Positions 1-36,943 of a DNA stretch of 36,992 bases are shown one piece after another. The notes under the pieces are model-generated. The model saw only the letters and a program-made list of their open reading frames with translations. It did not search any database and was not told the DNA's origin. The stretch is from a virus (lineage: Duplodnaviria; Caudoviricetes): the IMG/VR virus record IMGVR_UViG_3300037424_000758, positions 1-36,992 of that record; one strand, 5' to 3'. Each line of letters opens with the position of its first letter. Position 1 is the first letter of the stretch. Position numbers and translations under genes: made by a program.

Positions 1-63
1 TAGCTCGAGCGCATCGCCGTGGTAGAGGGTCACCTGGTCGTCTTGGTAATATGGTCTTTGCAT
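1..63 (-). CDS. DNA methyltransferase (N6/N4 type), N-terminal fragment running off the window
   Basis: Reads MQRPYYQDDQVTLYHGDALEL, a typical start of phage DNA methylases; only 21 codons visible. Confidence 0.65.
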   Translation of the reverse strand, partial: MQRPYYQDDQVTLYHGDALEL

Positions 64-72
64 AAAGTTGTC

Positions 73-138
73 TGCCAACAATGCGCTCTAGCGGGACCGC
101 GCGAAAAGCCGCGCGGCCCCTAAGCTAGATCGTTCGGC
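73..138 (+). repeat. attC site 1
   Basis: TGCCAAC-AATGC-GCTCTAGC...CCTAAGC-TAGATC-GTTCGGC. Confidence 0.85.
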
Positions 139-458
139 ACCTCAAACATATCCACCGTCTGCGTGCAGCGCGGCGCAGGGATCGTCTCTCCTGCTGACAC
201 AAACGCGGTGCAACAAGGCTGCCCGTGCTTGTCGTATTGCCACTCGACCGCCTCGCCGCGAAATGACGCGCCGATGATTTCGCATTTCTCGTCATCGTCG
301 CAGTCGTCGAAGTCGCAGCCTTCGCGCATGGCTTTGTCCCGCGCGCAGTTGCAGCACCAGGCCTCAATGAAAATCTCGCCCTCGGTGCCGTTGCTTGGCT
401 CCCACTGTTCTCCGGCCTGTTCCTTTGTCCGGTCTGCGAGTTCTTGCGGGTAAATCAT
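120..458 (-). CDS. Cys-rich hypothetical phage protein (cassette)
   Basis: 112-aa ORF with GGAG RBS; stop codon lies inside attC1. Confidence 0.75.
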   Translation of the reverse strand: MIYPQELADRTKEQAGEQWEPSNGTEGEIFIEAWCCNCARDKAMREGCDFDDCDDDEKCEIIGASFRGEAVEWQYDKHGQPCCTAFVSAGETIPAPRCTQTVDMFEVPNDLA

Positions 459-483
459 GGTCGTCTCCTATGGTTGCGCCGGT

Positions 484-548
484 GCCGAACACATCATCCG
501 AGCGGGACCGCGCAAAAAGCGCGCGGCCCCTCAATTCAGCCGTTATGC
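484..548 (+). repeat. attC site 2
   Basis: GCCGAAC-ACATC-ATCCGAGC...CCTCAAT-TCAGCC-GTTATGC. Confidence 0.85.
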
Positions 549-763
549 CTCTTGTTCCAGCGTTCTCGCAGCAGGTCGGTAACGTCGTCCATCAGCGGGT
601 AAATCAAGCCGCTGGCCGCGCCGCATGCGCTGCTCGTGCATTGCACGCACTGAGCGCCGATGCTCGGCTCGTCGGTCTCGCCCTGGAGCGTGATGATTTC
701 CGCCTCGGCGCCGCAGAACGGGCACGGCTTAAGCCGGTCGCTGTCGTCAATCAGGTGGTCCAT
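536..763 (-). CDS. Lar-family restriction-alleviation-like Zn-finger protein (cassette)
   Basis: LKPCPFCG...CxxxxC...WNKR pattern; GGAGG RBS before ATG at 763. Confidence 0.7.
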   Translation of the reverse strand: MDHLIDDSDRLKPCPFCGAEAEIITLQGETDEPSIGAQCVQCTSSACGAASGLIYPLMDDVTDLLRERWNKRHNG

Positions 764-789
764 GTCATTCCTCCGTTTTTGGCGCCGAG

Positions 790-846
790 GCATAACCCGG
801 CGTTGGTTCGGACGCCCTGCGGGCGCCGCACAACTCTGCGTTAGCC
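790..846 (+). repeat. attC site 3
   Basis: GCATAAC-CCGGC-GTTGGTTC...GCACAAC-TCTGC-GTTAGCC. Confidence 0.8.
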
Positions 847-1077
847 ACGCCTCGGCTTGCGTGTCGTGAATTCATCCAAAACCCGGAATGCCTCTTCTGT
901 TCGCGGGTCAATCGTGTACTGGCGCACATGGCGCATTTCGTAATTAATGCTTGCCAACATCGCCGCCTCTCGAAGTTCGGACGGTGTGAATTGCGCTCTC
1001 TCAATAAAATTTTCCAGCATCAGCACAAGCTGGTGATACTCCGGGTCATTCATGTATTTTTCGCGTGGTGTTTTCAT
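841..1077 (-). CDS. Hypothetical phage protein (cassette)
   Basis: 78-aa ORF with AAGGA RBS; TAA stop is part of the attC3 core. Confidence 0.75.
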   Translation of the reverse strand: MKTPREKYMNDPEYHQLVLMLENFIERAQFTPSELREAAMLASINYEMRHVRQYTIDPRTEEAFRVLDEFTTRKPRRG

Positions 1078-1102
1078 CGTGCATCCTTTCGTGGTACGCC
1101 GT

Positions 1103-1166
1103 GGCTAACACGGCGTTCTAGCTGGACTGTCCGCAAGCGGCCAGCCCCTAAACTTTGTCGTTATGC
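1103..1166 (+). repeat. attC site 4
   Basis: GGCTAAC-ACGGC-GTTCTAGC...CCTAAAC-TTTGTC-GTTATGC. Confidence 0.85.
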
Positions 1167-1167
1167 G

Positions 1168-1554
1168 TCAATCGTCTTCAGCCGTTTCCAATTCGCCATC
1201 GGCGCGCACTGCCATGAGTTTCTGGCCGCAACATCCGTAGGTGGCAATCCACAGCGGCGTCAGTGCGCCCATCACATAGTCGCCGCCCTTGTAGCCGGTG
1301 AACACTTGGCCCATCGCAGCCTTGCAATCTGCCAGCAGTTCGGATGCAGGGCGGGTCCCTTCCTGCCGCTCAAAGTACAGGTCGCTGTAATAGCCTCGGT
1401 AGCTGTCAGGGTCGCGCAGGTTCGCCACTTGTGCGTCGGCTGGCATCGACTCCAGCGCGTCGATCAGTTTACCGAGCGTAAGTTGGGTTTCAGCCCGCTC
1501 CCGCTGCCATTGGGCGCTCATGCCGTTAATCATTGCTTGCAAATTCATTGTCAT
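1168..1554 (-). CDS. Hypothetical phage protein (cassette)
   Basis: 128-aa ORF with AGGAG RBS; SYRGYY and FTGYKGG motifs resemble phage hypotheticals. Confidence 0.8.
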   Translation of the reverse strand: MTMNLQAMINGMSAQWQRERAETQLTLGKLIDALESMPADAQVANLRDPDSYRGYYSDLYFERQEGTRPASELLADCKAAMGQVFTGYKGGDYVMGALTPLWIATYGCCGQKLMAVRADGELETAEDD

Positions 1555-1571
1555 CTCCTAGTTGAAAAGCC

Positions 1572-1660
1572 GCATAACACGGCGGTCAACAAGACCGCCC
1601 GCAAGCGTCGTCGTTTATCAATCGCCCGTTGTGGGGCGGCTTGTTACCTCGGCGTTGGGC
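1572..1660 (+). repeat. attC site 5
   Basis: GCATAAC-ACGGC-GGTCAACA...TGTTACC-TCGGC-GTTGGGC. Confidence 0.85.
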
Positions 1661-2211
1661 GCCTTCATGAACGCTACCCAGTGCGTCTTCTGCTGCTTGC
1701 CGCTCCGGTGTCCGATCAGCGGCTTCTCGGGCGTCAGCGCCAGTATTTGCGAAACCGGAATCTCGTCTTCGCACCACTTGAAAATCAACACCCCTTCCGG
1801 GCGCAGCACGCGGAAGCATTCGGCAAACCCCTTGCGCAGTTCCTCGCGCCACTCACCTTTCAGCGTGCCGTACTTCAGGCCCACCCATCCGGTCGCGCCG
1901 TTGCGCTCAAAGTGTGGCGGGTCAAACACCACCAGCGCGAAGGTGTCGCTCGGGAAAGGCAAATCCGTAAAGTCGGCTTGGTGGTCTGGGTCAATCACCA
2001 ATTCCCGCGAGCCGCCCTTGCTCGAAACATCGGGCAGTGTGTGCCGCTCTCGGCGCTTGTCCACAAATACGGCGCGGCTGTCCTGGCGGTCAAACCAAAA
2101 CATCCGGCTCCCGCAGCAGGCATCAAGCACTGGCGGCAAGTCGCCCAACACGGCGGTCAAGGCCGACCCGCCGCCAGCGGCTTCGTTTTCGTTCTGTTGT
2201 GTGTCTAGCAT
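1618..2211 (-). CDS. Phage class I SAM-dependent (probable DNA) methyltransferase (cassette)
   Basis: VLDACCGSRMFWFD motif I, VVFDPPH catalytic-like motif, LIFKW. Confidence 0.85.
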   Translation of the reverse strand: MLDTQQNENEAAGGGSALTAVLGDLPPVLDACCGSRMFWFDRQDSRAVFVDKRRERHTLPDVSSKGGSRELVIDPDHQADFTDLPFPSDTFALVVFDPPHFERNGATGWVGLKYGTLKGEWREELRKGFAECFRVLRPEGVLIFKWCEDEIPVSQILALTPEKPLIGHRSGKQQKTHWVAFMKAPNAEVTSRPTTGD

Positions 2212-2265
2212 TCGTTTCCCTTGTTCGGTTCGTTGGCGGCGGTCGGCTTACCTGATGCGTTATCC
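2143..2265 (+). repeat. attC site 6 (long; its loop contains the methyltransferase start codon)
   Basis: GCCCAAC-ACGGC-GGTCAAGG-CCGACC...GGTCG-GCTTACC-TGATGC-GTTATCC. Confidence 0.85.
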
Positions 2266-2732
2266 ATCAAAGCACCCACACGGAATTTCCGTGGTGTGCG
2301 AAAACAAATCAAGCTGCGCCTCGCTGTATTTCACAAGGTCAGCCCACGCGAAGGACCGGCCCAACCCCTTCACGCTGGTCAGTTCGGCGCGTGCTTCCAT
2401 CGCCAGCGCCCGCTGCAATAGCTCCGGGTGCGTGCGTCCCAATTCCAGAATCTCTCGCGGCTTGCTGGATGGACAGAAAAAGCAGGCGCTTTTCCCCGGC
2501 TGCGGCAGTCCTGCGCGGGCTATCGCCTCGATACATTCCTCGCGGCCCCAATCCCATTCAATCAACGGGTAGCGCGTTTCCTCATACTTCGCCCGGTGCG
2601 CTTCGCCTGCGTCAATGCCAACCCAAAACCACGGGGCGGTTATCCCATGCGCTTTGAGCCATCGTTTTTGAGGCCGCACCTTGTAGTGGTCGCTACAACT
2701 TTTGGCTCTACGGAATAACGTGTTGAAGTTGA

Positions 2733-2760
2733 TTGACGTGCTAGCCGCGACACGCAAAAT
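2733..2760 (+). promoter_or_regulatory. Putative sigma70 promoter for the passenger gene
   Basis: TTGACG-16bp-CAAAAT upstream of GAAGGA RBS and ATG 2784. Confidence 0.5.
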
Positions 2761-2783
2761 GCGGCACAACTGGAAGGACCAAG

Positions 2784-3161
2784 ATGAGTGACCAGGCAAT
2801 TGAGAAAGAGATTCAGGAAAAGGGTTTGACCGCGCCGCGCGTGACGCCGTCTGACATCGAGGAGAATATCGAGCGCGAGCATTACTTTACGGCTGCTGAC
2901 GGCGTGTATAGCGCGCGCCCAGGTCTTGTGGAATTTGCCCCGGGTGACCCGGAACTGCTGCTGACCTTCTGCGTGCTGGTGCTGTGCAACGGTTTCACTG
3001 TCACCGGAGAGTCGGCCTGCGCCAGCCCTGAGAACTTCGATGCAGCGCTCGGACGCAAAATTGCCCGAGCAAATGCTGTGCAGAAAATCTGGCCGCTGAT
3101 GGGCTACGCGTTGCGCAGCAAGCTGGCCACACATTACCCGCAGGAAATGAAGTCTGCGTAA
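2784..3161 (+). CDS. Gp49-family phage protein (N4 gp49 / Sf6 gp66-like)
   Basis: KGLTAPRVTP...LTFCVLVLxNGFTVTGESACASPENFDxxxGRKIA...IWPLMGY signature. Confidence 0.85.
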   Translation: MSDQAIEKEIQEKGLTAPRVTPSDIEENIEREHYFTAADGVYSARPGLVEFAPGDPELLLTFCVLVLCNGFTVTGESACASPENFDAALGRKIARANAVQKIWPLMGYALRSKLATHYPQEMKSA

Positions 3162-3169
3162 TGGCATTC

Positions 3170-3195
3170 CCGCCGCCGGCGTGTGCTGGCGGCGG
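3170..3195 (+). terminator. GC-rich hairpin after passenger gene
   Basis: CCGCCGCCGGC-GTGT-GCTGGCGGCGG stem-loop; no clear U-tract. Confidence 0.45.
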
Positions 3196-3491
3196 ATAAT
3201 CCGCAGAGCCCAACTTTTGAATCCATACGCGATCCCTGGCAGGGCGCTCCTCCGCAAGCAATCTTCTTCAAGCGTAACTTCTTCGCGCACCATAACGATT
3301 GGCGGAAAACCAACGCTCTCACACCACCTACTCATTTCTTCAACATCACGGTAAATTCCTGGCAACTCGCCGCCAGGATCGGCCATCAAGATAATGTCAG
3401 GCCGTTCCCCGCGTTCGCGCAGCCCGACCAAAACAGCTTTGCTATTGGTTCCGCCGCCGTAGCTTAAAACCGATGTCTGCGCCGGTTTGAT

Positions 3492-3569
3492 GGATAACAC
3501 GTCGGTCAAGGCCGCTCCTTTCAGTCGCTGGACGGCGCTGAAGCGCCGCCCCTTACCTGTTTGTTAGAG
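3492..3569 (+). repeat. attC site 7 (contains RBS and TTG start of the PAPS-reductase-like gene)
   Basis: GGATAAC-ACGTC-GGTCAAGG...CCTTACC-TGTTT-GTTAGAG. Confidence 0.85.
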
Positions 3570-3570
3570 A

Positions 3571-3792
3571 TCACCAGTAGCTCACGCTGTAGCCGCAATC
3601 GTCGCAACTTTCGCCAGCGGTGCAGTCCGTGTAATTCGTGCTTCCGCACTTCGGGCATGTTGGGCCAGTGTGCCTGGGCGTATATGTCACCGCTGGCGCA
3701 TTCTTCTCGGCCACGCACCACTTGCACAGGCCCTCGCGCACGGGCGCGTCGTCGTAAAAATTGTGTCCACATCCGGGGCATCGTGCAGCCAT
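3571..3792 (-). CDS. Small multi-CxxC zinc-ribbon protein (cassette)
   Basis: MAARCPGCG...CKWC...CPKCG...CDDCG; GAGGAG RBS supplied by the attC8 spacer. Confidence 0.7.
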   Translation of the reverse strand: MAARCPGCGHNFYDDAPVREGLCKWCVAEKNAPAVTYTPRHTGPTCPKCGSTNYTDCTAGESCDDCGYSVSYW

Positions 3793-3853
3793 CTCTAACT
3801 CCTCATTCAAGCGGGACCGGCTGAAAGCCGGTCCCTTAATTCAATCGTTGTGC
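3793..3853 (+). repeat. attC site 8
   Basis: CTCTAAC-TCCTC-ATTCAAGC...CCTTAAT-TCAATC-GTTGTGC, very close to canonical attC architecture. Confidence 0.9.
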
Positions 3854-4113
3854 GCCTTCTCACGCACCGTCACCACCACCTCAAGCCCAAGGTGCGCCGC
3901 GAGCTGCTCCAGGTGCTCTATGGTCGCGGGCTGGTTGCCCTTCTCGATATTTGTCACGCTGGTTCTGCCGAGTCCGAGAATTTCCCCAACTTCGCCCTGG
4001 TTCATTCCGGCCAGCTTTCGCAGTTCAAGCATCATCCCGGCAATCCCGGCCAGCGGGGCAGTCTGCTTTGGCTCTACCGCAGCCTTCGCCGCGTCTGTTA
4101 TCTCTGCTCTCAT
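3841..4113 (-). CDS. XRE-family HTH DNA-binding protein (cassette)
   Basis: LRKLAGMNQGEVGEILGLGRTSVTNIEKGNQ HTH motif. Confidence 0.85.
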   Translation of the reverse strand: MRAEITDAAKAAVEPKQTAPLAGIAGMMLELRKLAGMNQGEVGEILGLGRTSVTNIEKGNQPATIEHLEQLAAHLGLEVVVTVREKAHND

Positions 4114-4339
4114 TCAATCTCCAGTCGCACAACACGTTGGGCACCTCTGCGCCGTCCTGGTCGAACACTGCGGTCTTATGGCATGCAGTGCATACCTTCT
4201 CCACGGTCCACAGCATTTTTTGCATATTGCTAACGTCCTGTTCTTCGGATCGGCACGCCGGCGTCCTAACGATAGTTGCCATCCGTGGCCCATTCTCAAT
4301 GTAGTGGTGTGGCCCGCGTAAAATCGCGCATCTGTCCAT
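4025..4339 (-). CDS. Hypothetical protein (cassette; C-terminus reads through the deleted attC9)
   Basis: GGAG RBS before ATG 4339; frame ambiguous versus alternative ORF 4114-4299. Confidence 0.4.
   Translation of the reverse strand: MDRCAILRGPHHYIENGPRMATIVRTPACRSEEQDVSNMQKMLWTVEKVCTACHKTAVFDQDGAEVPNVLCDWRLNESRDNRRGEGCGRAKADCPAGRDCRDDA
4127..4142 (+). repeat. attC site 9 remnant (only the two core sites left)
   Basis: GCACAAC-AC-GTTGGGC; each core complements the core at the other end of its adjacent cassette. Confidence 0.7.
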
Positions 4340-4357
4340 TCTTCGCTCCAGTTCGTT

Positions 4358-4415
4358 GCCCAACAAGTTAATCGAGCGGGGTCGGCGCTTTAGCGACGGC
4401 CCCTCATTGTTATGA
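4358..4415 (+). repeat. attC site 10 (L'-R' spacer missing)
   Basis: GCCCAAC-AAGTT-AATCGAGC...CCTCATT-GTTATGA. Confidence 0.7.
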
Positions 4416-4613
4416 GCCGCGCCAGTGGATGTTCAGCCCCAGCAGCGTGGCGCGAATTTCCCGGTATTGCCGCTGCCAAAAGAACAGCCGGCGGTGCAGC
4501 GAAACTGAAACCTTCCAGCCTTCGCGGTAGGCCCAGCGTCCGCTCTCAAATTGAAACAGGGTTATCCGGCTGTCTCCGGTGGCGCGTGCGCCAATCCAAA
4601 ACACCAATCGCAT
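4410..4613 (-). CDS. Hypothetical protein (cassette)
   Basis: 67-aa ORF filling the inter-attC space; start could be 4643 inside attC11. Confidence 0.55.
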   Translation of the reverse strand: MRLVFWIGARATGDSRITLFQFESGRWAYREGWKVSVSLHRRLFFWQRQYREIRATLLGLNIHWRGS

Positions 4614-4634
4614 TCCGTTATCCAATAGTTCTGT

Positions 4635-4698
4635 GCCCAACAAATCATTCCAGCGGGACGGGCGAAAATCCGCCCGCCCCTGAATTCAGTCGTTGGGC
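4635..4698 (+). repeat. attC site 11
   Basis: GCCCAAC-AAATC-ATTCCAGC...CCTGAAT-TCAGTC-GTTGGGC. Confidence 0.9.
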
Positions 4699-4979
4699 AC
4701 CAGCCCCTTACCGCCACACTTATCGCAGCCTGAATCAAACCCGCAAGCGCACCCACGCGGGTTATCTGCCTCGCACCATTCTTCAAAGTCGGGGTCTTCG
4801 TTGCGGGCTTCAATTCGTGCGTCTTCGCACTCAGGGTGCATTTTCACAACCGTTGGCCCGTCGTCGCCAAAGTAACGCCAGCGGTGGTATGTGCCTCCGG
4901 TTTCAATTTTCTGGCCGCACCAAGAGCAGCGGTGGTCTTTTATGGCTCTCAGTGTTTCCGTCGTCGTTGCTGTTCCCAT
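4686..4979 (-). CDS. Cys-rich hypothetical phage protein (cassette)
   Basis: AIKDHRCSWCGQKI...KMHPEC motif; AGGAG RBS. Confidence 0.75.
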   Translation of the reverse strand: MGTATTTETLRAIKDHRCSWCGQKIETGGTYHRWRYFGDDGPTVVKMHPECEDARIEARNEDPDFEEWCEADNPRGCACGFDSGCDKCGGKGLVPND

Positions 4980-4981
4980 CG

Positions 4982-5548
4982 CTATCTCCTGTGCCCAACA
5001 AATCGCTCAAGGCGGGACGCTCCGCGAGCGTCAGCGGCCTTGCGTTGGTCTTTAATCGCGCACCTTAGCTGGGTCGTCGGAACCACACGCATAGGTGTGT
5101 CACCATGCAGCGCCAGCCGAACCCGGCGCAGAAAGTCTGGGCCGTCGTAAACACCCTCCTCCCATTCAGCCAATAATGAATGCAACTGTTCTTTCTCACG
5201 GTGCAGCCGCTCGATCTCACTTCCGGCGTCGGCCGGCGCCCGTGTGCCCAGCGCCGGAAAATCCTGCTCCGCCAGCCGCCGAAGCGCGCCGCCGCGCACG
5301 CGGGCCATGGCATAGTCGGCCGCCAGCAGCGCGCAGTGCACGTCGGCCGGCACCGGATAGGGGTGCGGCCAGCATTCGCGGTGCGCTTGGCTCAGATCCT
5401 GCGTGGCGGCCACCAGCACGCGCACGTCGGCCAGCAGCAGGTTGCGGCCGGAGTCCTGGCTTGGCTGCATGCTCGGCGTGTAGGTCACGCCGCCGGCGTC
5501 GTTCAGGATGAAATGCCTGCTGGCATTTATCGTGTTCTCTCCGTTCAT
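4982..5548 (-). CDS. Hypothetical protein reading through attC12
   Basis: 188-aa ORF, GGAGG RBS, coupled to upstream gene. Confidence 0.6.
   Translation of the reverse strand: MNGENTINASRHFILNDAGGVTYTPSMQPSQDSGRNLLLADVRVLVAATQDLSQAHRECWPHPYPVPADVHCALLAADYAMARVRGGALRRLAEQDFPALGTRAPADAGSEIERLHREKEQLHSLLAEWEEGVYDGPDFLRRVRLALHGDTPMRVVPTTQLRCAIKDQRKAADARGASRLERFVGHRR
4993..5082 (+). repeat. attC site 12 (GTC instead of GTT core)
   Basis: GCCCAAC-AAATC-GCTCAAGG...CCTTAGC-TGGGTC-GTCGGAA. Confidence 0.75.
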
Positions 5549-5751
5549 CGAAAACCTCCCGCGTCAAGCCAGTCGTGCTGCTGCACGGTTTCGTAGTCGT
5601 CCTGCATCCCTCGTACGGGGCAGACCATTATCGGGGCGTGCTGGCGGATTGTCTCGGCCACGTTGGTGTCGTGGGACGACACATAGCCGCGCCTGGTGTT
5701 GGTGATCGGCAGCGGGCACCAGGGTGCTGTGCCTGACGTCGGCGCGCTCAT
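5545..5751 (-). CDS. Hypothetical phage protein
   Basis: MSAPTSG... start chosen from ATGA overlap with upstream ORF. Confidence 0.55.
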   Translation of the reverse strand: MSAPTSGTAPWCPLPITNTRRGYVSSHDTNVAETIRQHAPIMVCPVRGMQDDYETVQQHDWLDAGGFR

Positions 5752-5918
5752 ACGCCCACCTGCGAAAACATCTGCCGGAACAGCTGCTCGGCCAGGATCA
5801 CAATTAGGCCGATTGCGCAGGCCAGCGCGATGAAGCGGTCGATGGGCCTGGTGTCGCCGTTGTGTTGCGGCCGGCCGGCGGCGCGCGCGAGCTGGTGGCG
5901 GGTGTGCAGGCCGTTCAT
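5748..5918 (-). CDS. Small membrane protein (56 aa, below ORF-track cutoff)
   Basis: MNGLHTRHQ...FIALACAIGLIVILAE; ATGA overlaps on both sides. Confidence 0.6.
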   Translation of the reverse strand: MNGLHTRHQLARAAGRPQHNGDTRPIDRFIALACAIGLIVILAEQLFRQMFSQVGV

Positions 5919-6154
5919 GGTCTGCCCCGCACATCGTTGATCGGCCTGGAATATATCCGTTTCGTGTAAAAGTACATCTTGTGCCCGTCGGTGACATCAG
6001 ACGAATTAGGCTGCAGCAGCGACAGGTAAGCCTTTCTCAGGCGGTCGTCATGGATTCGGTGGGCGAAGTTGATTCCCTCATACATCCAGGTGTCGCCGTG
6101 CCTGCGGACGAGATCGGCGATGCCGAGCGGGCGGGAGTAGGGTGCCGGGATCAT
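5915..6154 (-). CDS. Hypothetical phage protein
   Basis: 79-aa ORF with ATGA overlaps. Confidence 0.65.
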   Translation of the reverse strand: MIPAPYSRPLGIADLVRRHGDTWMYEGINFAHRIHDDRLRKAYLSLLQPNSSDVTDGHKMYFYTKRIYSRPINDVRGRP

Positions 6155-6387
6155 GCTGCCACATCCTCAAGCGTCGAGCGCGGCATGCGCATCTGGTAGG
6201 TCGCGCGGTTCAGCGCCTGTTGCGCGGCTTCGCGGTAGAGCTCGGCGCCCACGGGCAGGTTTTCTGCCTCCAGCACGCGGGCCACGCGGGTGAATTCCTC
6301 AAAGCGGTCATACCAGCACGATGAATTGTCCGGCGTGGCCATCCAGGTGCGCGCCAGGACTTGTTCGGTAAGCGTCATTGTCTGCAT
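6151..6387 (-). CDS. Hypothetical protein, first gene of the leftward early operon
   Basis: GGGAG RBS before MQTMTLTEQ. Confidence 0.65.
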   Translation of the reverse strand: MQTMTLTEQVLARTWMATPDNSSCWYDRFEEFTRVARVLEAENLPVGAELYREAAQQALNRATYQMRMPRSTLEDVAA

Positions 6388-6557
6388 GTCGACTCCCATT
6401 GGGTTGATTGGGCCGGTGCTCTCCCGGCTTGTCATGGCGCTTTCGTTCCAGAGGCATGCACTCTCGCCCCCTCACCATTACGGCCTGTCTCGTATTCAGG
6501 CTTCGTCGCTGTTCGGTCGGCCAGCGATGCCGGGGCCGTTTTGGGCGGCTTGGGAGG

Positions 6558-6599
6558 ATTATTCATCCATGTATTCTATCTGTCAATACATGTATGAAT
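6558..6599 (-). promoter_or_regulatory. pL-like promoter with two operators
   Basis: TTGACA(6586-6581)-17bp-AATAAT on the minus strand; 14-bp operators ATTCA-TCCA-TGTAT (6561) and ATACA-TGTA-TGAAT (6586). Confidence 0.75.
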
Positions 6600-6674
6600 A
6601 ATTCGTGAGAAAATAAAAACGCGCCCGGTGTGGGCGAGTCAATTGGTATGCTTATCCGACGGGAGGGGGACTTA

Positions 6675-7163
6675 ATGGATACGGAAAAACTGCGCAGGAT
6701 TGAATGGATCGACGAAGCCGGGCGGGAGAATCTTCGCTTCCGGCTGCAGAACGCGGAGACGCTGGCGCGCGAGGCGCATCAAACGCTGATGGTGCTGCTC
6801 GCGGGCATGGGCGCCGCGCTGGCCTACGTGGTGAGGGTGCTGGAGTACGGTCCGGTGACGGCGGTGGGCGCCGGCGTGGCGGCGGTCACGGTTTGGTTGA
6901 CGTTGTCGGCAGCGGTGCTGGTTGTGGAATGCATTCTCAGCCGCGACCTGCCAGTGCCGGCCAACGAGCCGGACAACCTATGGCAGGAGGGGTGGACTTT
7001 GGAGATGGACAGGATGGGCGAGCTGAAGGGGCTGCAGGCGCGCATCGACGCGACGCGCGTCCGCAACCACGCGGTGGCCGCGTGGCTCGACCGCGCGCGC
7101 CTGATGGCGGTCGCCAGTCCGGTGGTGTTTCTGCTTACCGCGCTGGCCTGGGTGGGACTTTAG
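6675..7163 (+). CDS. Three-TM membrane protein (immunity-region moron)
   Basis: Strong RBS; three hydrophobic segments. Confidence 0.75.
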   Translation: MDTEKLRRIEWIDEAGRENLRFRLQNAETLAREAHQTLMVLLAGMGAALAYVVRVLEYGPVTAVGAGVAAVTVWLTLSAAVLVVECILSRDLPVPANEPDNLWQEGWTLEMDRMGELKGLQARIDATRVRNHAVAAWLDRARLMAVASPVVFLLTALAWVGL

Positions 7164-7249
7164 CCTGTTCCCGGCGTTCTGGCTGCGGCGAGGGCTGCGG
7201 CGGGACGTTGGGCGGCAGGGCAGTGTGTTTGTCGCTCATGGCGGCGCGG

Positions 7250-7729
7250 TCAGTCGATTTCGGGGATGCCAAGCCAGATGCCATAATAATCTCCTCCGCC
7301 GCCGCGAATCATCGCTGGGACGGTGGCGACAGATGGAAGATTGCGTTGCTTCACTAATTTTCTGTATGCGCGAGCAGTGGCGCGCGCCAGGTATCCGACG
7401 GTTTGTCCGCCGATTTTTATGACGACTGCGTTGTTGTCGTGTGGGTTGTTGTCTTCCAACTCGATGGTGGCTTGGACGATATTGTGCCCAGGCGGCAGGG
7501 ATGTCGCGACAACATGAATGGCCGGTTGATAACTGGCTTCGCCGACGATTTCTTGGTCGAATTCGCCTTCTCCGCACAGCGTATGGTCATCGCTTACCGC
7601 CTCGTCGCGGTCCTTGTAGTATTTGATGGTAACGCGGTTTGATGGAGGTGCCGTATCGCTGGTGGCGAAAAGGTGAAACAGGTACCACCCAAGCCCGACA
7701 ATAACGAGCAGTGTGATCGCAACTTCCAT
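7250..7729 (-). CDS. Membrane-anchored HIRAN-domain-like protein
   Basis: N-terminal TM; IVGEASYQ...LEDNNPHDNNAVVIKIGGQTVGYL HIRAN motif. Confidence 0.8.
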   Translation of the reverse strand: MEVAITLLVIVGLGWYLFHLFATSDTAPPSNRVTIKYYKDRDEAVSDDHTLCGEGEFDQEIVGEASYQPAIHVVATSLPPGHNIVQATIELEDNNPHDNNAVVIKIGGQTVGYLARATARAYRKLVKQRNLPSVATVPAMIRGGGGDYYGIWLGIPEID

Positions 7730-7781
7730 TTTTGCTTTCTCCCCTGGTTATTCGAATTTCAGTTCAATCTTATTGATATTT

Positions 7782-8027
7782 TTATTCGTTCCCATCCCTT
7801 GCTCGGCTGGCTACGTCGTCCGATAGCATGCACACCACGCCCAGGGCAAATAGCGGGTTTCGGTAGGCTTCCCCGGCTGTGTCGACGATGCAGGCGCGGC
7901 GCTTCATGATCGCGCCGTAGGCGAGCCCAATCACTTCGCCGCGCTTGGCCTCGTGCAGCAGAAATTCCAGCGCCTCTACCGTGTCGTGCGAGATCGTGGC
8001 TCGCATCATGGTGAAGGGCGGCTTCAT
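7782..8027 (-). CDS. Hypothetical protein downstream of repressor
   Basis: 81-aa ORF, ATGA overlap with repressor stop. Confidence 0.7.
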   Translation of the reverse strand: MKPPFTMMRATISHDTVEALEFLLHEAKRGEVIGLAYGAIMKRRACIVDTAGEAYRNPLFALGVVCMLSDDVASRARDGNE

Positions 8028-12235: not shown

Positions 12236-12978
12236 GCGTCAATCTTGTTAAATGGGCGATCCGTCAGCAGCTGACGGCGACGCAGAAGCTTGTCCTGATC
12301 GTTCTGGCTGAGCATGGGGACAAGGATGGCAGGTGCTACCCTGGTCAGGAGCTGCTGGCACGCGAAACCAGTCTGACGGAGCGTGCGGTGCGGAAGGCGA
12401 TTCATGTGCTGCGCGACGTTGGGTTGATCGGGGTGCAGCGAAGAACATTCGTAAAGGGCGGGTCGACCTCGAATTACTACACGTTCAACATCGATGTGGA
12501 CGTCGAAACAATTCCACAGGAAGGCGTGGATGAAGTCGAATCCGGACAGGAACCACGTTCCTCTCCGGTCGAATCCGGACAGGAACCATGTTCCTCGTCC
12601 GGACAGGAACCATGTTCCTCACCCTATAAGGAAGAACCACCAGTATTAACCACCAGAAGCGCGCACGAGCGCGTGCGCGACGCTTCGGTGATCTTCGATA
12701 CCGAACGGAATGCATTCCAGGTTGCACCCGAAGTGCTCGACGGATGGGTGGAACGATACCGAAGGCTGGTCGACCCCGATCACTGGTCGCCAGACATGGC
12801 CGAGGAGTGGGTTCGTCACCAGGTGCGCAGCGCGGCGGTGTACCTGTCGAACCCGGCAAACCGGAAGAAATACCGCGACCTCAAGCGCTTCCTCGAAAAC
12901 CAGCTCAGCCGTGCCGGAGAACGCCTGATCGTGCCGCATGCACGCTACCCGCAACGCCAGCACAGGGCCACAGCATGA
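12232..12978 (+). CDS. Phage replication initiator (N-terminal HTH)
   Basis: CYPGQELLARETSLTERAVRKAIHVL HTH; internal iterons. Confidence 0.85.
   Translation: MSVNLVKWAIRQQLTATQKLVLIVLAEHGDKDGRCYPGQELLARETSLTERAVRKAIHVLRDVGLIGVQRRTFVKGGSTSNYYTFNIDVDVETIPQEGVDEVESGQEPRSSPVESGQEPCSSSGQEPCSSPYKEEPPVLTTRSAHERVRDASVIFDTERNAFQVAPEVLDGWVERYRRLVDPDHWSPDMAEEWVRHQVRSAAVYLSNPANRKKYRDLKRFLENQLSRAGERLIVPHARYPQRQHRATA
12541..12620 (+). repeat. Iterons, probable replication origin
   Basis: Three copies of TCCGGACAGGAACCAYGTTCCTC at 12541, 12574 and 12598 inside the initiator gene. Confidence 0.8.
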
Positions 12979-19757: not shown

Positions 19758-21170
19758 ATGGATGAGATAGGCCAGAACATGCTTTTAAGCGGCGAAAGAC
19801 AAGTCACCCCCAACATGAACGAGATCCGCGCCGATCACCGCGCCCGCTACCAATGGGCTGCCCAGCAGCTCAAAGGCGCGCGCGTGCTCGACCTCTGCTG
19901 CGGCATCGGCTATGGAAGCAAACTGCTGGCCGAGGCAGGATGCAAAGTCGAAGCGTGGGACATCGACGGCGAGAGCCTGGTCTACGCAAAGCGCCACCAC
20001 GGCCATGCGAACATCGAACATCTGCGCGGCGACCTTGGCAGCGCGGACGTCGCCTTCGACTTCAACGACGCCGCCGTCTGCTTCGAAGGCATCGAACATA
20101 TCGCCGATCCGCGCCCCATGCTGCGCGCCGCCGCTGCGGCTGCCCCCATCCTGCTGTGCAGCGTCCCCGACGAAGACGGCTTCCCCTACCGCCAGCCCGA
20201 CGGCAGCACCGTCGCCTTCCATCACCGCCACTACACCATCCACGAATTCATCGGCCTGCTCAACGAATGCGGATGGTCCGTCGCCCGCCTCGGCCGCCAG
20301 GAAGGCCCCGAGTCCGACGTCGAAGAACTGCGCGACGGCGCGGCCTACTACCCGGCCCGCACCATCGTCGCCTACTGCGTGCGCACCGCCGACCTGCATC
20401 AGATGGTCCGCGAGGATACCGAAGCCGCGCCCGAGCAGCATACGCCGGCCGCCCCCGGCCCCGAACACATCGCCATCCTCGGCCTCGGTCCCAGCCTCGA
20501 AGAATACGTCAACATCACCAAGCGCCTCGGCGGCAAACACGCCTTCTGCGACGAAGTCTGGGGCATCAACGCCGTCGGCGGCACCATCATGTGCGACCGC
20601 ATCTTCCATATGGACGACGTCCGCATCCAGGAGCGCCGCGCCGGCGCGCTGCCCGAGAGCAACATCGCCCGCATGATGGAATGGCTGCGCGTTCACCCCG
20701 GCCCCATCGTCACCAGCCGCGCCCACCCCGACTATCCAGGCCTGGTCGAATACCCGCTCGAGGACGTGCTCAACCACCTCGGCCACGACTATTTCAACAG
20801 CACCGCCGCCTATGCCGTCGCCTACGCCATTCACATCGGCGCCAAGCGCATCAGCCTGTTCGGCTGCGACTACACCTATCCAAACGCCCACGACGCCGAA
20901 AAGGGTCGCGCCTGCGTCGAATTCTGGCTCGGCGTCGCCGTCGCCCGTGGCATCAAAATCGCCATCGCCAAAAGCAGCAGCCTCATGGACGCCCTGCACA
21001 GCCGGCAGGAAAGGCTCTACGGCTACGACACCCTGAACATCGACCTCAAGGTTGACGAAGCCGGCCGCGCAAAACTCACGTTCACCGAGCGCGAGCAGAT
21101 ACCCACGGCAGAAGAGATCGAAGCGCGCTACGACCACAGTGCGCACCCGAACGCACTCGTGAAAGGCTGA
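19758..21170 (+). CDS. SAM-dependent methyltransferase fused to a Rossmann-like transferase-type domain
   Basis: HRARY...VLDLCCGIGYG...FEGIEH N-domain; IAILGLGPSL...VWGIN...ISLFGCDY C-domain. Confidence 0.75.
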   Translation: MDEIGQNMLLSGERQVTPNMNEIRADHRARYQWAAQQLKGARVLDLCCGIGYGSKLLAEAGCKVEAWDIDGESLVYAKRHHGHANIEHLRGDLGSADVAFDFNDAAVCFEGIEHIADPRPMLRAAAAAAPILLCSVPDEDGFPYRQPDGSTVAFHHRHYTIHEFIGLLNECGWSVARLGRQEGPESDVEELRDGAAYYPARTIVAYCVRTADLHQMVREDTEAAPEQHTPAAPGPEHIAILGLGPSLEEYVNITKRLGGKHAFCDEVWGINAVGGTIMCDRIFHMDDVRIQERRAGALPESNIARMMEWLRVHPGPIVTSRAHPDYPGLVEYPLEDVLNHLGHDYFNSTAAYAVAYAIHIGAKRISLFGCDYTYPNAHDAEKGRACVEFWLGVAVARGIKIAIAKSSSLMDALHSRQERLYGYDTLNIDLKVDEAGRAKLTFTEREQIPTAEEIEARYDHSAHPNALVKG

Positions 21171-21174
21171 TGAA

Positions 21175-22872
21175 ATGACAGATCGATACAAAGTCCCAGG
21201 CATCAGCCTTCCGAGCGTACCTGTTGCGGATGATCTTGATGGCGAGGAACTGGTTCTTGTTCTTGAGAACGGCGAACTCAAACTGAAAGCGGCACGAACG
21301 GTCGCGCAGTCTCTGCTGCAAACCGTCAACGGCGCTACCGTCTTGGTGGGGGCGGATGGGGTGGCGCTGCTAAATAACGGATCAGCGGTTGCAGCCCCAT
21401 ACATCCTTGCGTCATGGGGAGACAGCCGCGCAAACGTTACGGCCATCACAGCGCCGACATTTGACGTATCTGCGTCGGCAAAGACGTTATACAGGTCTGC
21501 CTCATGGGTTGAGGCTTTGATGGGCGATGCCGACCTTCAATACAATTTTGGGTATTCCGGTGGAACGGCCGCAAACTGGGACATTCTTACAGCATCAGAC
21601 CGTGCCACGCATGGCAAAACCATCAAGGCGCTTGAAGCGATATACACTGATGTGGTTGTCATGCAGCTTGGCGTGAATGACGCCATTGCAGGTACAGCTG
21701 CTGCGACCATCGTTGGGTATCTCAAAGAGAACATCGTAGAGATACTCAAGCAAGGCAAGCGGCTTCTCTTCGAGGCGATCTATCCGGTCAACACACCCGG
21801 AACGAACTATGAGGCGGCACAGGTAATCGTAGATGCGGTCAATGCTTCAATGGCTGCGTGGGTTCCCACCTTGCCAGCAAGCTCGATCAAGTATGTCGAT
21901 GTGGCGACCCCGCTCAAGGACGCGAACGGCTATCTCAGCACAGCGTATTCCGATGCGACCGGCATCCATCCTAATGCGGCTGCTGCAAAGCTCATAGCCG
22001 CGCTCGACGTTGCCGCAATACGTGAGTGGTTGCCCAAACGGGTAGCGCAGTTTTACTCCCCGGAGCCAAAAGCTCCGAACATGCTCAACCTGTTCAACCC
22101 CACCACTCCGCAGAATCAAGTATTCCTCACTGCCGTAGGCGGATCTACTTGGGCCGCCATCTCACCGACTGTGGGGGAGGATTCGTATGGATCGTACATC
22201 GACATTGACCTTCAGCCGACCGCACTTGCCTCAGGTGTGGCAACGGCGAGAATTGATTTTTCGGCAAACTTCAACACGTCGGTATCGCCGTACTACGCCC
22301 TTCTCGGCAACGAGAAAATCCAGGGCGGGGTAAAGTGCATCATTGACGACGGCAACGGTGGCGCATCATCTGTCATTGGTTTCGGGTTCAGGCAGCGCAA
22401 TTACACCGCCGCCGCCTACAACGATTGGGGTATCTCTGCTGCCGTGGCAAGCACAGAACCTGCAATCGGTTATGTAGATGCTCAGGTCAACACGCCTAAG
22501 CTGCTCAACCTGACAGCCTCCGCAAGTGCTGTACCATCAGCCGGATCGGGGTATCAGCTTCAGTTTTTTATCTGTGTCAACACGTTGGATGCTTTGCGTG
22601 TGCGTGTCTACAACCCCAGGCTTGGTGCTGTCGGGTTTGTGAATTCTGTTCTGACTGCCGCGAGTTTCGACATCCCTGCATCAACTGTTGCGTACACCAA
22701 TGCGAGCACCGGGAAACAGCAAATCACAGTCGGCGGCGGAACGGTGTCTGAAATTGCGCTCAACGGGGTTGCCACCGGTCTTACCGCTGGAGTGTTCATC
22801 CTTAACCCAGGCGATACCATGACGCCGACCTACTCGGCTGCGCCGACGTGGACCATTAATCATATCCAGTAG
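21175..22872 (+). CDS. SGNH/GDSL hydrolase-domain protein, possibly virion-associated
   Basis: WGDS, GYSG, GVND and DATGIHPN blocks; appears lower in GC than flanks. Confidence 0.8.
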   Translation: MTDRYKVPGISLPSVPVADDLDGEELVLVLENGELKLKAARTVAQSLLQTVNGATVLVGADGVALLNNGSAVAAPYILASWGDSRANVTAITAPTFDVSASAKTLYRSASWVEALMGDADLQYNFGYSGGTAANWDILTASDRATHGKTIKALEAIYTDVVVMQLGVNDAIAGTAAATIVGYLKENIVEILKQGKRLLFEAIYPVNTPGTNYEAAQVIVDAVNASMAAWVPTLPASSIKYVDVATPLKDANGYLSTAYSDATGIHPNAAAAKLIAALDVAAIREWLPKRVAQFYSPEPKAPNMLNLFNPTTPQNQVFLTAVGGSTWAAISPTVGEDSYGSYIDIDLQPTALASGVATARIDFSANFNTSVSPYYALLGNEKIQGGVKCIIDDGNGGASSVIGFGFRQRNYTAAAYNDWGISAAVASTEPAIGYVDAQVNTPKLLNLTASASAVPSAGSGYQLQFFICVNTLDALRVRVYNPRLGAVGFVNSVLTAASFDIPASTVAYTNASTGKQQITVGGGTVSEIALNGVATGLTAGVFILNPGDTMTPTYSAAPTWTINHIQ

Positions 22873-35326: not shown

Positions 35327-36925
35327 CTATCCGTCGACCATTCGCCCCGTCTCACGATCCACCCGCAGCCATACCTGCCCGCCCCCACGCGCGGTGATCT
35401 CGATCTCGGCCACCTTGCCGTCTGCCACCCCGGCCGGCTCTCCCCTGTGCCAGACCACGATGCGCTGAAAACTCGCCCGCACCAGTTCGCGCGCCCGCAG
35501 CCGCGGCTCGGGCTCCAGCAGTTCAACCCCTTCCATCAGGTCGAGCCACTGGCTGGCGAATTCCGGCGAGGCGGCGGGCTTCCAGCCGGCCAGCTCGCGC
35601 TCGGCCGTTGCAATTTCGGCGCGCGCGGCGTCGGCCTCGGCTTCCATCGCGCGGATCTGGCGCATGACGGTGATCGGTGCCGGGCCGTCGTCGTCCAGCA
35701 GCACGCGGCCGAGCTTGTCGAGCTTGGTGTCCAGAGCGGCCAGCCGCCGCCGCGCCGCCGCCAGCCCGGCGCGCAGGCTGTTGCCCGCATCTCCGCCGGA
35801 TAGCAGCGCATCCATGCGCAGCTGGTCGGCGCAGTACCGCATCAGCGCGCGCTCGATCGGCGCGGCATGGATTGACCCCTGCACGCTGCAGCCGTGGCCT
35901 TTGGAATGGCGGGTGCACATGAGCCGCCGGTGTCCGGGCCACGGCCTGCCGTCCGGCATGCGCGGGCGCCCCATCTGGTTCTGCGACGCCATCGCCGCGC
36001 CGCAGTAGCCGCACACGGCAATGCCCATGCCGGTGAGGATGCTGGGTATTTCGCCCACGCCGCGCTTGCCCTTACGGCGGTCGAGCGCCAGCTGCAGGCG
36101 GTCGAATTCGTCCGGCGTGAGCAGGGCGGGGTAGTAGCCCTGCAAATGATACGTCTCGCCACCCACGGCAATCTCGCGCTCTCCCAGCAGTAGCCGTTTG
36201 CGCAGCGTCTTGTACAGATGCGCCGCCCCCAGCGATCCGGATTCCGTTGTCGCCATCCCCCGCGCCGCCAGCTCGCGCATCACCTGCACCCCGCCCAGCC
36301 CGTCCAGAAAGCGATCGACCGCAAAGCGCAGCGCCGCCGCGCGATCAGGCACCAGTTCCCACGCCTTGCCTATGTGGCGCACCCAGTGCGGGTCTTTCCC
36401 CACCCGGATCACCCCGCGCCAGGTGCCCGCCTGCCAGCCTGCGCACTGCCGACGTATCGCCGCGCGCACGCGCTTGGATTTGGTGTCGCTCTCCTCGTGC
36501 GCGCGCGCCATCACAACCAGGGCGCCGAACAGCTTGAACGGATTGGCTTTGATCTCGGCACGGCTGTACTCTTGCCCATCCACCGCCGTCACCACCGTGA
36601 CCCCGGCATTGATGATCTGCGTCAACTGCGACAGCGCGTCGATAGGCTCCGCCCGGCTCAGCCGGTCCAGCGCCTCCACCACCAGCACCGACCCCGCATC
36701 CACCATCCCGTCCTCTATCGCCCGCAGGAACAGCCCCAGCGCGCCGTGCGTCACATGCCGCTGGTGATACCCGCTCAGCCCCTCGTCGCGCAGCGACAGC
36801 GCCTCGTCCAGCGCCAGCCCATGCTCAGACGCCCACCGCTGCGCATAGTCCGCCTGCCGATCCGCCGACGACCCCGCCGCCTGCTTCGGGTCGCTGAAGC
36901 GCAAATAGCTGTACACTTTCGGCAT
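35327..36925 (-). CDS. Large serine recombinase (integrase)
   Basis: YSYLRFS catalytic Ser, VEALDRLSR, recombinase domain, CGYCG Zn ribbon, coiled coil. Confidence 0.95.
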   Translation of the reverse strand: MPKVYSYLRFSDPKQAAGSSADRQADYAQRWASEHGLALDEALSLRDEGLSGYHQRHVTHGALGLFLRAIEDGMVDAGSVLVVEALDRLSRAEPIDALSQLTQIINAGVTVVTAVDGQEYSRAEIKANPFKLFGALVVMARAHEESDTKSKRVRAAIRRQCAGWQAGTWRGVIRVGKDPHWVRHIGKAWELVPDRAAALRFAVDRFLDGLGGVQVMRELAARGMATTESGSLGAAHLYKTLRKRLLLGEREIAVGGETYHLQGYYPALLTPDEFDRLQLALDRRKGKRGVGEIPSILTGMGIAVCGYCGAAMASQNQMGRPRMPDGRPWPGHRRLMCTRHSKGHGCSVQGSIHAAPIERALMRYCADQLRMDALLSGGDAGNSLRAGLAAARRRLAALDTKLDKLGRVLLDDDGPAPITVMRQIRAMEAEADAARAEIATAERELAGWKPAASPEFASQWLDLMEGVELLEPEPRLRARELVRASFQRIVVWHRGEPAGVADGKVAEIEITARGGGQVWLRVDRETGRMVDG

Positions 36926-36943
36926 GGTCAACACCCCACACGG

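Follow-up and report, generated by a model that had tools for sequence, protein, structure and literature searches.

The left part of the phage record IMGVR_UViG_3300037424_000758 from IMG/VR (positions 1 to 36,992; Caudoviricetes; linear, 94% complete), which was analysed as one window of 36,992 bases, carries a row of small genes separated by attC, the recombination sites of integrons. This row is likely a phage-adapted integron array, with genes antisense to the attC sites and with cassettes that have probably been inserted and excised by the integron integrase (IntI) of the host, acting in trans. Nearly every cassette begins and ends with words that are reverse complements of each other. 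Such paired ends are known; what is unusual is an antisense and phase-locked array of phage cassettes with no IntI in the sequence examined. The features of the array are given below, with the limits of each cassette taken from the G of GTT to the C of AAC.

1 to 79, plus strand: cut cassette at the contig end; a minus-strand open frame runs off position 1
73 to 138, plus strand: attC 0
120 to 458, minus strand: gene of cassette 1 (132-490), 112 amino acids, PHROG families of unknown function; extends 12 bases beyond the crossover
484 to 548, plus strand: attC 1
536 to 763, minus strand: gene of cassette 2 (542-796), Lar-like restriction alleviation (phrog_599, E 3.5e-10; PF14354, E 3.4e-10)
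790 to 846, plus strand: attC 2
841 to 1077, minus strand: gene of cassette 3 (840-1109), 78 amino acids, no family; its stop lies inside the core site
1103 to 1166, plus strand: attC 3
1168 to 1554, minus strand: gene of cassette 4 (1160-1578), 128 amino acids, phrog_12889; homologues are found in cassettes and as ordinary phage genes
1572 to 1660, plus strand: attC 4, 93% identity over 88 bases with an attC of the related phages G001 and G003
1618 to 2130, minus strand: gene of cassette 5 (1654-2149), phage DNA methyltransferase (phrog_954, E 5e-70), start codon uncertain
2143 to 2265, plus strand: attC 5, with a long variable stem
2260 to 3498, minus strand: cassette 6 (2259-3498), gene like 3'-phosphoadenosine 5'-phosphosulfate (PAPS) reductase (phrog_424, E 5.8e-22, 3' part)
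2784 to 3161, plus strand: gene of the N4 Gp49 / Sf6 gp66 family (PF13876, E 6e-32), inside cassette 6 and opposite the PAPS-reductase-like gene
3492 to 3569, plus strand: attC 6
3563 to 3799, minus strand: cassette 7, two candidate open reading frames (ORFs) of 73 amino acids (stop 3571) and 86 amino acids (stop 3521); no family for the one scanned
3793 to 3853, plus strand: attC 7
3841 to 4113, minus strand: gene of cassette 8 (3847-4133), HTH_3 regulator
4127 to 4142, plus strand: collapsed junction of an inverse core, 2 bases and a core, with no hairpin
4136 to 4364, minus strand: cassette 9, with an ORF that starts near 4339 and continues across the collapsed junction
4358 to 4415, plus strand: attC 9, with a short right arm
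4410 to 4613, minus strand: gene of cassette 10 (4409-4641), 67 amino acids; cassette ends unpaired
4635 to 4698, plus strand: attC 10, fully paired in place
4686 to 4979, minus strand: gene of cassette 11 (4692-4999), 97 amino acids, phrog_7314
4993 to 5082, plus strand: attC-like site at the end of the array, its core degenerate (GTC at 5076); a minus-strand ORF (4982-5548) overlaps it

The genes of the cassettes are read from the minus strand, against the polarity of attC; they carry their own ribosome-binding sites and are of phage type (Lar, DNA methylase, PAPS reductase, helix-turn-helix regulator), with some orphans besides. A canonical array has its genes on the attC top strand and its promoter on the attI side, which is not the arrangement of these minus-strand genes. 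The conserved AAC and GTT around a paired stem are complete in 10 of the 12 window sites; in one of the other two the gap from AAC to GTT at 4133/4136 is 2 bases, which makes it a collapsed site and not an attC, and the other is the terminal site, which most likely ends in the GTC at 5076, or else in a weak GTT at 5044. The ORF at 4982-5548 (188 amino acids) spans the whole of this terminal site and has its stop codon in the ribosome-binding region of cassette 11. At least two attC sites on one strand within 4 kb is the rule for a CALIN, an attC cluster that has no integron integrase (PMC4889954), and the window array shows this arrangement. When seven short sites were aligned, AAC and GTT were invariant, 90.5% of the cells were paired and 8 of the 19 pairs carried two-sided changes, with a structure taken from one of the seven sequences, which makes the controls lenient. 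The sites have unpaired extra bases on one arm, which in a CALIN define the recombining strand, and the arm pairing of the window sites scores higher in the plus polarity. For searches in other DNA, a covariance model and a script detector with arm profiles were built from the same seven sites; the detector gave 1 match at a score of at least 18 in 625 kb of shuffled DNA, and thresholds of 16 to 24 were used. A detector based on arm pairing alone was dropped as not specific.

The pairing of cassette ends had been the subject of the original prediction, which quoted ten pairs of words; all 20 were found at their positions. The exact complement between start and end measures 10, 10, 10, 8, 8, 13, 9, 8, 8, 3 and 9 bases for cassettes 1 to 11, so that matches of 8-13 bases, as claimed, occur in 10 of the 11, and the start of a CALIN cassette complementing its own inverse core is the usual case here; among the off-diagonal combinations of starts and ends, only 4 of 110 reach 8 bases. 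The proposed permutation of ends gave a mean sum of 47.1 (standard deviation 7.1, maximum 91) against the observed 96, which was reached in 0 of 300,000 permutations. Starts were also said usually to pair better with the end of their own segment than with the other end of their own attC, and this was confirmed in 9 of 10 segments (for the first ten, the attC's other end matches over 3, 4, 4, 3, 3, 4, 3, 4, 3 and 9 bases). After circularisation in silico, the fold at the junction is more stable than that of the site in the array for 10 of 11 cassettes, partly a trivial outcome of the longer match. The description of the ends as private is right for most cassettes and wrong for two, since the starts at 4136 and 4692 have 9 bases in common; the start at 4136 matches the ends at 4641 and 4999 over 9 bases and its own end over 8. 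The cassettes may be excisable units, with the exception of the one ending at the collapsed site 4133/4136.

The pattern extends to other arrays. Three motif scans of IMG/VR, together with relatives of the window, yielded 97 locus-strands with at least two attC sites and 291 distinct segments, the window's included; 181 of the 291 pair at 8 bases or more, compared with 13 of 291 for the pairing with the own attC and with a mean of 57.8 (maximum 79) in 2,000 within-array permutations. As a bacterial control, 40 loci flanking intI were picked for apparent room from the intI hits in the betaproteobacterial order described below, superseding a smaller control (14 segments, 11 sense). The detector found arrays in 35 of these 40 loci, and the pairing by itself is an ordinary integron signature, because 98 of the 143 segments beside bacterial intI also pair at 8 bases or more. 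Left out of the original prediction were the features that are out of the ordinary: a phage as carrier of the array, genes antisense to attC, attI-like heads among relatives and a single codon phase. Circular cassettes integrate at G/TT (PMC5027507), and the prediction that cassettes with a paired attC had crossed over at this point is supported by the attC anatomy and by the recurrence of cassettes described below. It is extremely improbable that the hairpins are terminators, repetitive extragenic palindromic (REP)-like repeats or homology linkers with incidentally paired ends; the original prediction had also argued against terminators and REP elements. Inverted repeats that are GC-rich do lie between the genes and some sites share sequence, but there were no terminator-like hits on attC (0 of 15), the only Rfam hit over 1-8000 fell under its gathering score, so that no intrinsic terminator, REP or Rfam RNA was recognised, the pairing follows the segment rather than the hairpin, and homology between contigs stops at the G/TT position.

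Parts of the window depart from the pattern. The segment 4409-4641 (cassette 10) is the sole pairing exception, with 3 bases. Its homologue in the loci L443/L444 is 93% identical over exactly 4409-4631 and has a like core at its start, but ends in a different inverse core, pairing at 7/8 bases; because of this other, pairing inverse core, the attC of the window cassette has probably been replaced. The inverse cores of cassettes 10 and 11 (4633-4647 and 4990-5004) share about 15 identical bases, which is possibly linked to the replacement. Another such part is the junction at 4127-4142: because it has no hairpin, cassettes 8 and 9 are probably fused. Its letters are identical in the contig of sequencing run X2 that spans 3845-4214, and the viral segments examined include 3 such collapsed forms. 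In cassette 6, the PAPS-reductase-like gene is broken, with pieces in two frames and the opposite-strand gene inside it (three-frame translation). The product of that inner gene (2784-3161) has a weak PDB match to Acb4, a protein directed against the cyclic oligonucleotide-based antiphage signalling system (CBASS) (E 0.06), and homologues carry an unconfirmed 'anti-CRISPR' label in two Pseudomonas phage records. At the other end of the array, a contig of run X1 (depth 96.8) has attC-like pieces, matching 4698 and 2136-2188, joined to position 1, hinting that the array continues leftward. Low X1 depth over 2341-4446 was considered as a sign of cassette loss and rejected, since only about 73% of the run was read and it contains 99% of the words.

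Homologous cassettes were found with the same boundaries and other neighbours, as had been proposed as a check. Eight full-length cassette pairs are common to contigs; both neighbours differ in 6, one in 1 and none in 1, and cassettes up to 99.8% identical are flanked by different neighbours. At an 85% threshold, contigs of runs X3 and X4 have other DNA up to 1653, 2259 and 4409, where homologues of cassettes 5, 6 and 10 start. The gene of cassette 4 has homologues at 18 loci, 10 with attC hits in antisense polarity and 8 without; they have paired ends of their own at L384, L387, L392 and L393 and lack them at L389, and in L388 and L394 the gene is a plain one. For cassette 1 a single viral homologue was found, with no attC hits. 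From these comparisons, the differences in neighbours read as footprints of exchange.

The orientation of the genes separates viral from bacterial arrays. Segments of at most 1 kb with at least 7 paired bases (211 of the 291 viral and 103 of the 143 bacterial) were scored by their best ORF, which is antisense in 175 of 211 viral and in 5 of 103 bacterial segments (Fisher p 9e-44). In 75 viral cassettes drawn at random from 170 with ORFs on both strands, PHROG hits fell on 21 antisense ORFs and on 1 sense ORF, and six were DNA methyltransferases. The family phrog_12600, of unknown function, is an antisense cassette in three arrays of this sample (L175, L176, L347). In 40 of 45 arrays the genes past the last attC keep to the antisense strand.

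These counts bear on two further explanations. It is very unlikely that the array is a static remnant, taken at some time from the chromosomal integron of a host and no longer recombining. Phages with captured pieces of host integrons have been described (PMC9892861), and the collapsed site 4133/4136, the GTC core at 5076 and the broken cassette 6 are in keeping with such a history, but host arrays are sense in 98 of 103 segments, the cargo is phage-type, near-identical cassettes stand among different neighbours, and a related phage with 91% terminase identity (G001) has a different set of 12 attC-bounded segments. Less probable still is an origin from ordinary cassettes that went in the wrong way round when the attC top strand recombined, an event that does invert a cassette (PMC5027507). 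Such an inversion would flip the attC along with the gene, but in 279 of 291 sites it is the canonical arm that bears the extra bases (a partly circular count, the detector having been trained on that polarity), the attI-like sites are on the same strand as the attC sites, and in bacteria the same model locates arrays of sense genes on the strand that points away from intI.

The ends of the antisense genes keep a fixed codon phase. Of the antisense genes, 127 have an ATG together with a Shine-Dalgarno match; 71 of them, from 45 loci, read past the crossover, all with the core AAC as a codon, and 47 of the remaining 56 have their stop at -8 or -1. The two alternative frames are blocked in no more than 40 and 23 of 72. 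In bacteria, sense genes read through in every frame (7, 5, 2). Codon usage was rejected as the cause of the fixed phase (64 observed, 38.8 of 64 expected); a stop codon in the cassette's own attC is a weak candidate (25 of 64 against 13 of 59, p 0.05), and in-phase start codons before the core were rejected as a phage-specific feature, being present in 53 of 57 viral and 53 of 65 bacterial cases. Early stops in the attC bottom strand are commonest in the phase concerned (87 of 289, against 28 and 21), a bias that may contribute to the fixed phase but is not its explanation. A candidate cause is selection for continued translation (PMC11511950).

In many viral arrays the first cassette is preceded by words like those between bacterial intI and the first cassette. 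Scanning for one such word gave 36 distinct attI-like sites; an attC follows within 1.5 kb at 19 of the 29 with room, and 13 of these 29 pair with the following attC at 8 bases or more. The attI-like site of G001 lies at L147:6352, and its cargo differs from that of the window. In G002 (terminase 76%), no match to the array was found. Two attI-like sites 902 bases apart, with the first cassette between them, occur in two records (L345 and L360/L361), the L360 record also having an intI fragment.

The integrase itself was looked for with the IntI model TIGR02249, which has no match within the window's 36,992 bases; the intI gene that marks a complete integron was thus not found in the sequence examined, and the contig breaks inside the array. 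It is unlikely that the phage moves its cassettes by a recombinase of its own, either an intI in the missing part of the genome, allowed for by a record that is 94% complete and breaks within the array, or the serine integrase of the window. In one viral record (G013), an antisense array does have a full intI next to it, but full IntI is lacking in 52 of 53 viral records, including all 5 that are at least 90% complete, and in G001 the 6.3 kb upstream of the attI-like site hold no IntI match. Serine integrases are not known to act on folded single-strand sites. In G013 (L368, 4485-6775), the attI-like site, the full intI and a lambda-type integrase directly behind it head 12 attC sites with antisense cargo. 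Recombination by host IntI is in keeping with the bacteria sampled: IntI scored over the cut-off in 61 of 151 genomes of a betaproteobacterial order (that of G056), and in G056 the host array beside intI includes an N6_N4 methylase cassette in antisense (L292:1914-3045), a relative of phage cassettes.

The rest of the window has the gene content of a lambdoid siphophage (CII, DnaB, an O-like initiator, terminases, portal, capsid and tail genes, and a serine integrase), by which it is a temperate lambdoid phage. Among named relatives, those closest to the integrase come from Burkholderiales (about 54%), which suggests a betaproteobacterial host. Three features outside the array matter for its reading:

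6558 to 6586, minus strand: sigma-70-type promoter-like site, 11/12 consensus, pointing toward the array (consensus scan)
12547 to 12628, no strand: three direct repeats inside the O-like initiator gene, origin candidate
35327 to 36934, minus strand: large serine integrase, not IntI

The first (6586-6558) is a predicted early leftward promoter with the array downstream; the scan was by consensus only, with 4 sites found against 3.2 expected by chance at a looser threshold. The repeats are likely the replication origin. The block of head genes is interrupted by a gene with a methyltransferase-like N-terminus (19758-21170, plus strand) and by a tail-spike-like gene of lower GC (21175-22872).

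From these elements, the following mechanism can be proposed. A cassette would move as a circle, its attC bottom strand folding with both core sites paired, and the G/TT crossover would split the stem and leave one half at each end of the integrated cassette, giving the paired-end pattern. We infer that host IntI acts in trans on the array, recombining attC bottom strands with the phage attI. The early leftward promoter would read the array from its old end toward attI, so that new cassettes would join the early operon at its promoter-distal end, which is opposite to the order in bacteria. Given an origin at 12547-12628, the attC bottom strand would be the lagging-strand template, a position that raises excision (PMC5371416).

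Several points weigh against this interpretation. Its support consists of sequence footprints, and no recombination, circle or transcript has been observed; the host is inferred from protein similarity alone. The left end of the window is absent, its own attI lies outside the sequence and an intI could sit in the gap; besides the full intI of G013, N-terminal intI pieces are present in G011 and G042. With three degenerate or unpaired sites and a broken cassette 6, part of the window array is decaying. Motifs of the window and its relatives served to find the viral loci, so that one attC family was sampled, and the loci are IMG/VR records not individually confirmed by phage hallmark genes. Under the ORF rule 36 of 211 viral cassettes come out sense, and upstream of the first cassette there is no dominant strand (18 antisense, 13 sense, 2 tied).

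Tentatively, and with somewhat less than even confidence, we propose that phages of integron-bearing bacteria run an integron branch of their own, in which an attI and antisense, phase-fixed cassettes of phage genes fit the early operon, host IntI shuffles counter-defence genes and cassettes are passed into host arrays, and in which the geometry of the gene ends (either a stop at -8 or -1 or else readthrough, in one phase only) is a record of the making of cassettes. If so, phages would use the integron machinery of the host as a modular exchange for methylases, restriction-alleviation and other accessory genes. Bacterial integron arrays, for their part, reportedly hold anti-phage systems. The same gene families, present as plain phage genes and as cassettes with base-exact end rules, would allow a direct test of models of cassette genesis.

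The window array resembles several known systems. The lambdoid early leftward operon carries accessory genes at its tail, including Lar, methylase and PAPS-reductase-like genes, and the window array is alike in this; unlike those genes, each gene of the window is bounded by integron recombination sites. The 17 phage CALINs of Qi et al. (2023), five sites of which were recombined by IntI1 (PMC9892861), are likewise attC clusters without integron integrase in phages with DNA methylase cargo, but their non-integron arrays have 2-4 sites, compared with 12 in the window. Among these phages, TJE1 has attC sites sense to its genes, and MW202573 is antisense, with three sites on the minus strand, coding sequences on the plus strand and a stop at -1. 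In the main text and part 1/2 of the supplement of PMC9892861, the antisense orientation of MW202573 goes unremarked, and attI-headed, integrase-less antisense arrays and codon phase are not discussed. A literature search covering few subscription journals found no description of antisense phage arrays, and BLAST of the array and of single attC sites against cultured phage records found no array. Insertion at attG sites, seen with single attC sites lacking integron integrase (SALINs), is similar in that IntI places cassettes in other DNA at GWT, and is a possible route by which an array could be founded; SALINs are single cassettes with no attI, whereas here the arrays are long and have attI-like heads in relatives (bioRxiv 10.1101/2022.09.11.507474). 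Betaproteobacterial chromosomal integrons (IntI, TIGR02249) share the attC family, the attI-like words and the paired ends with the phage arrays, and differ from them in their sense genes, their adjacent intI and their readthrough without a fixed phase.

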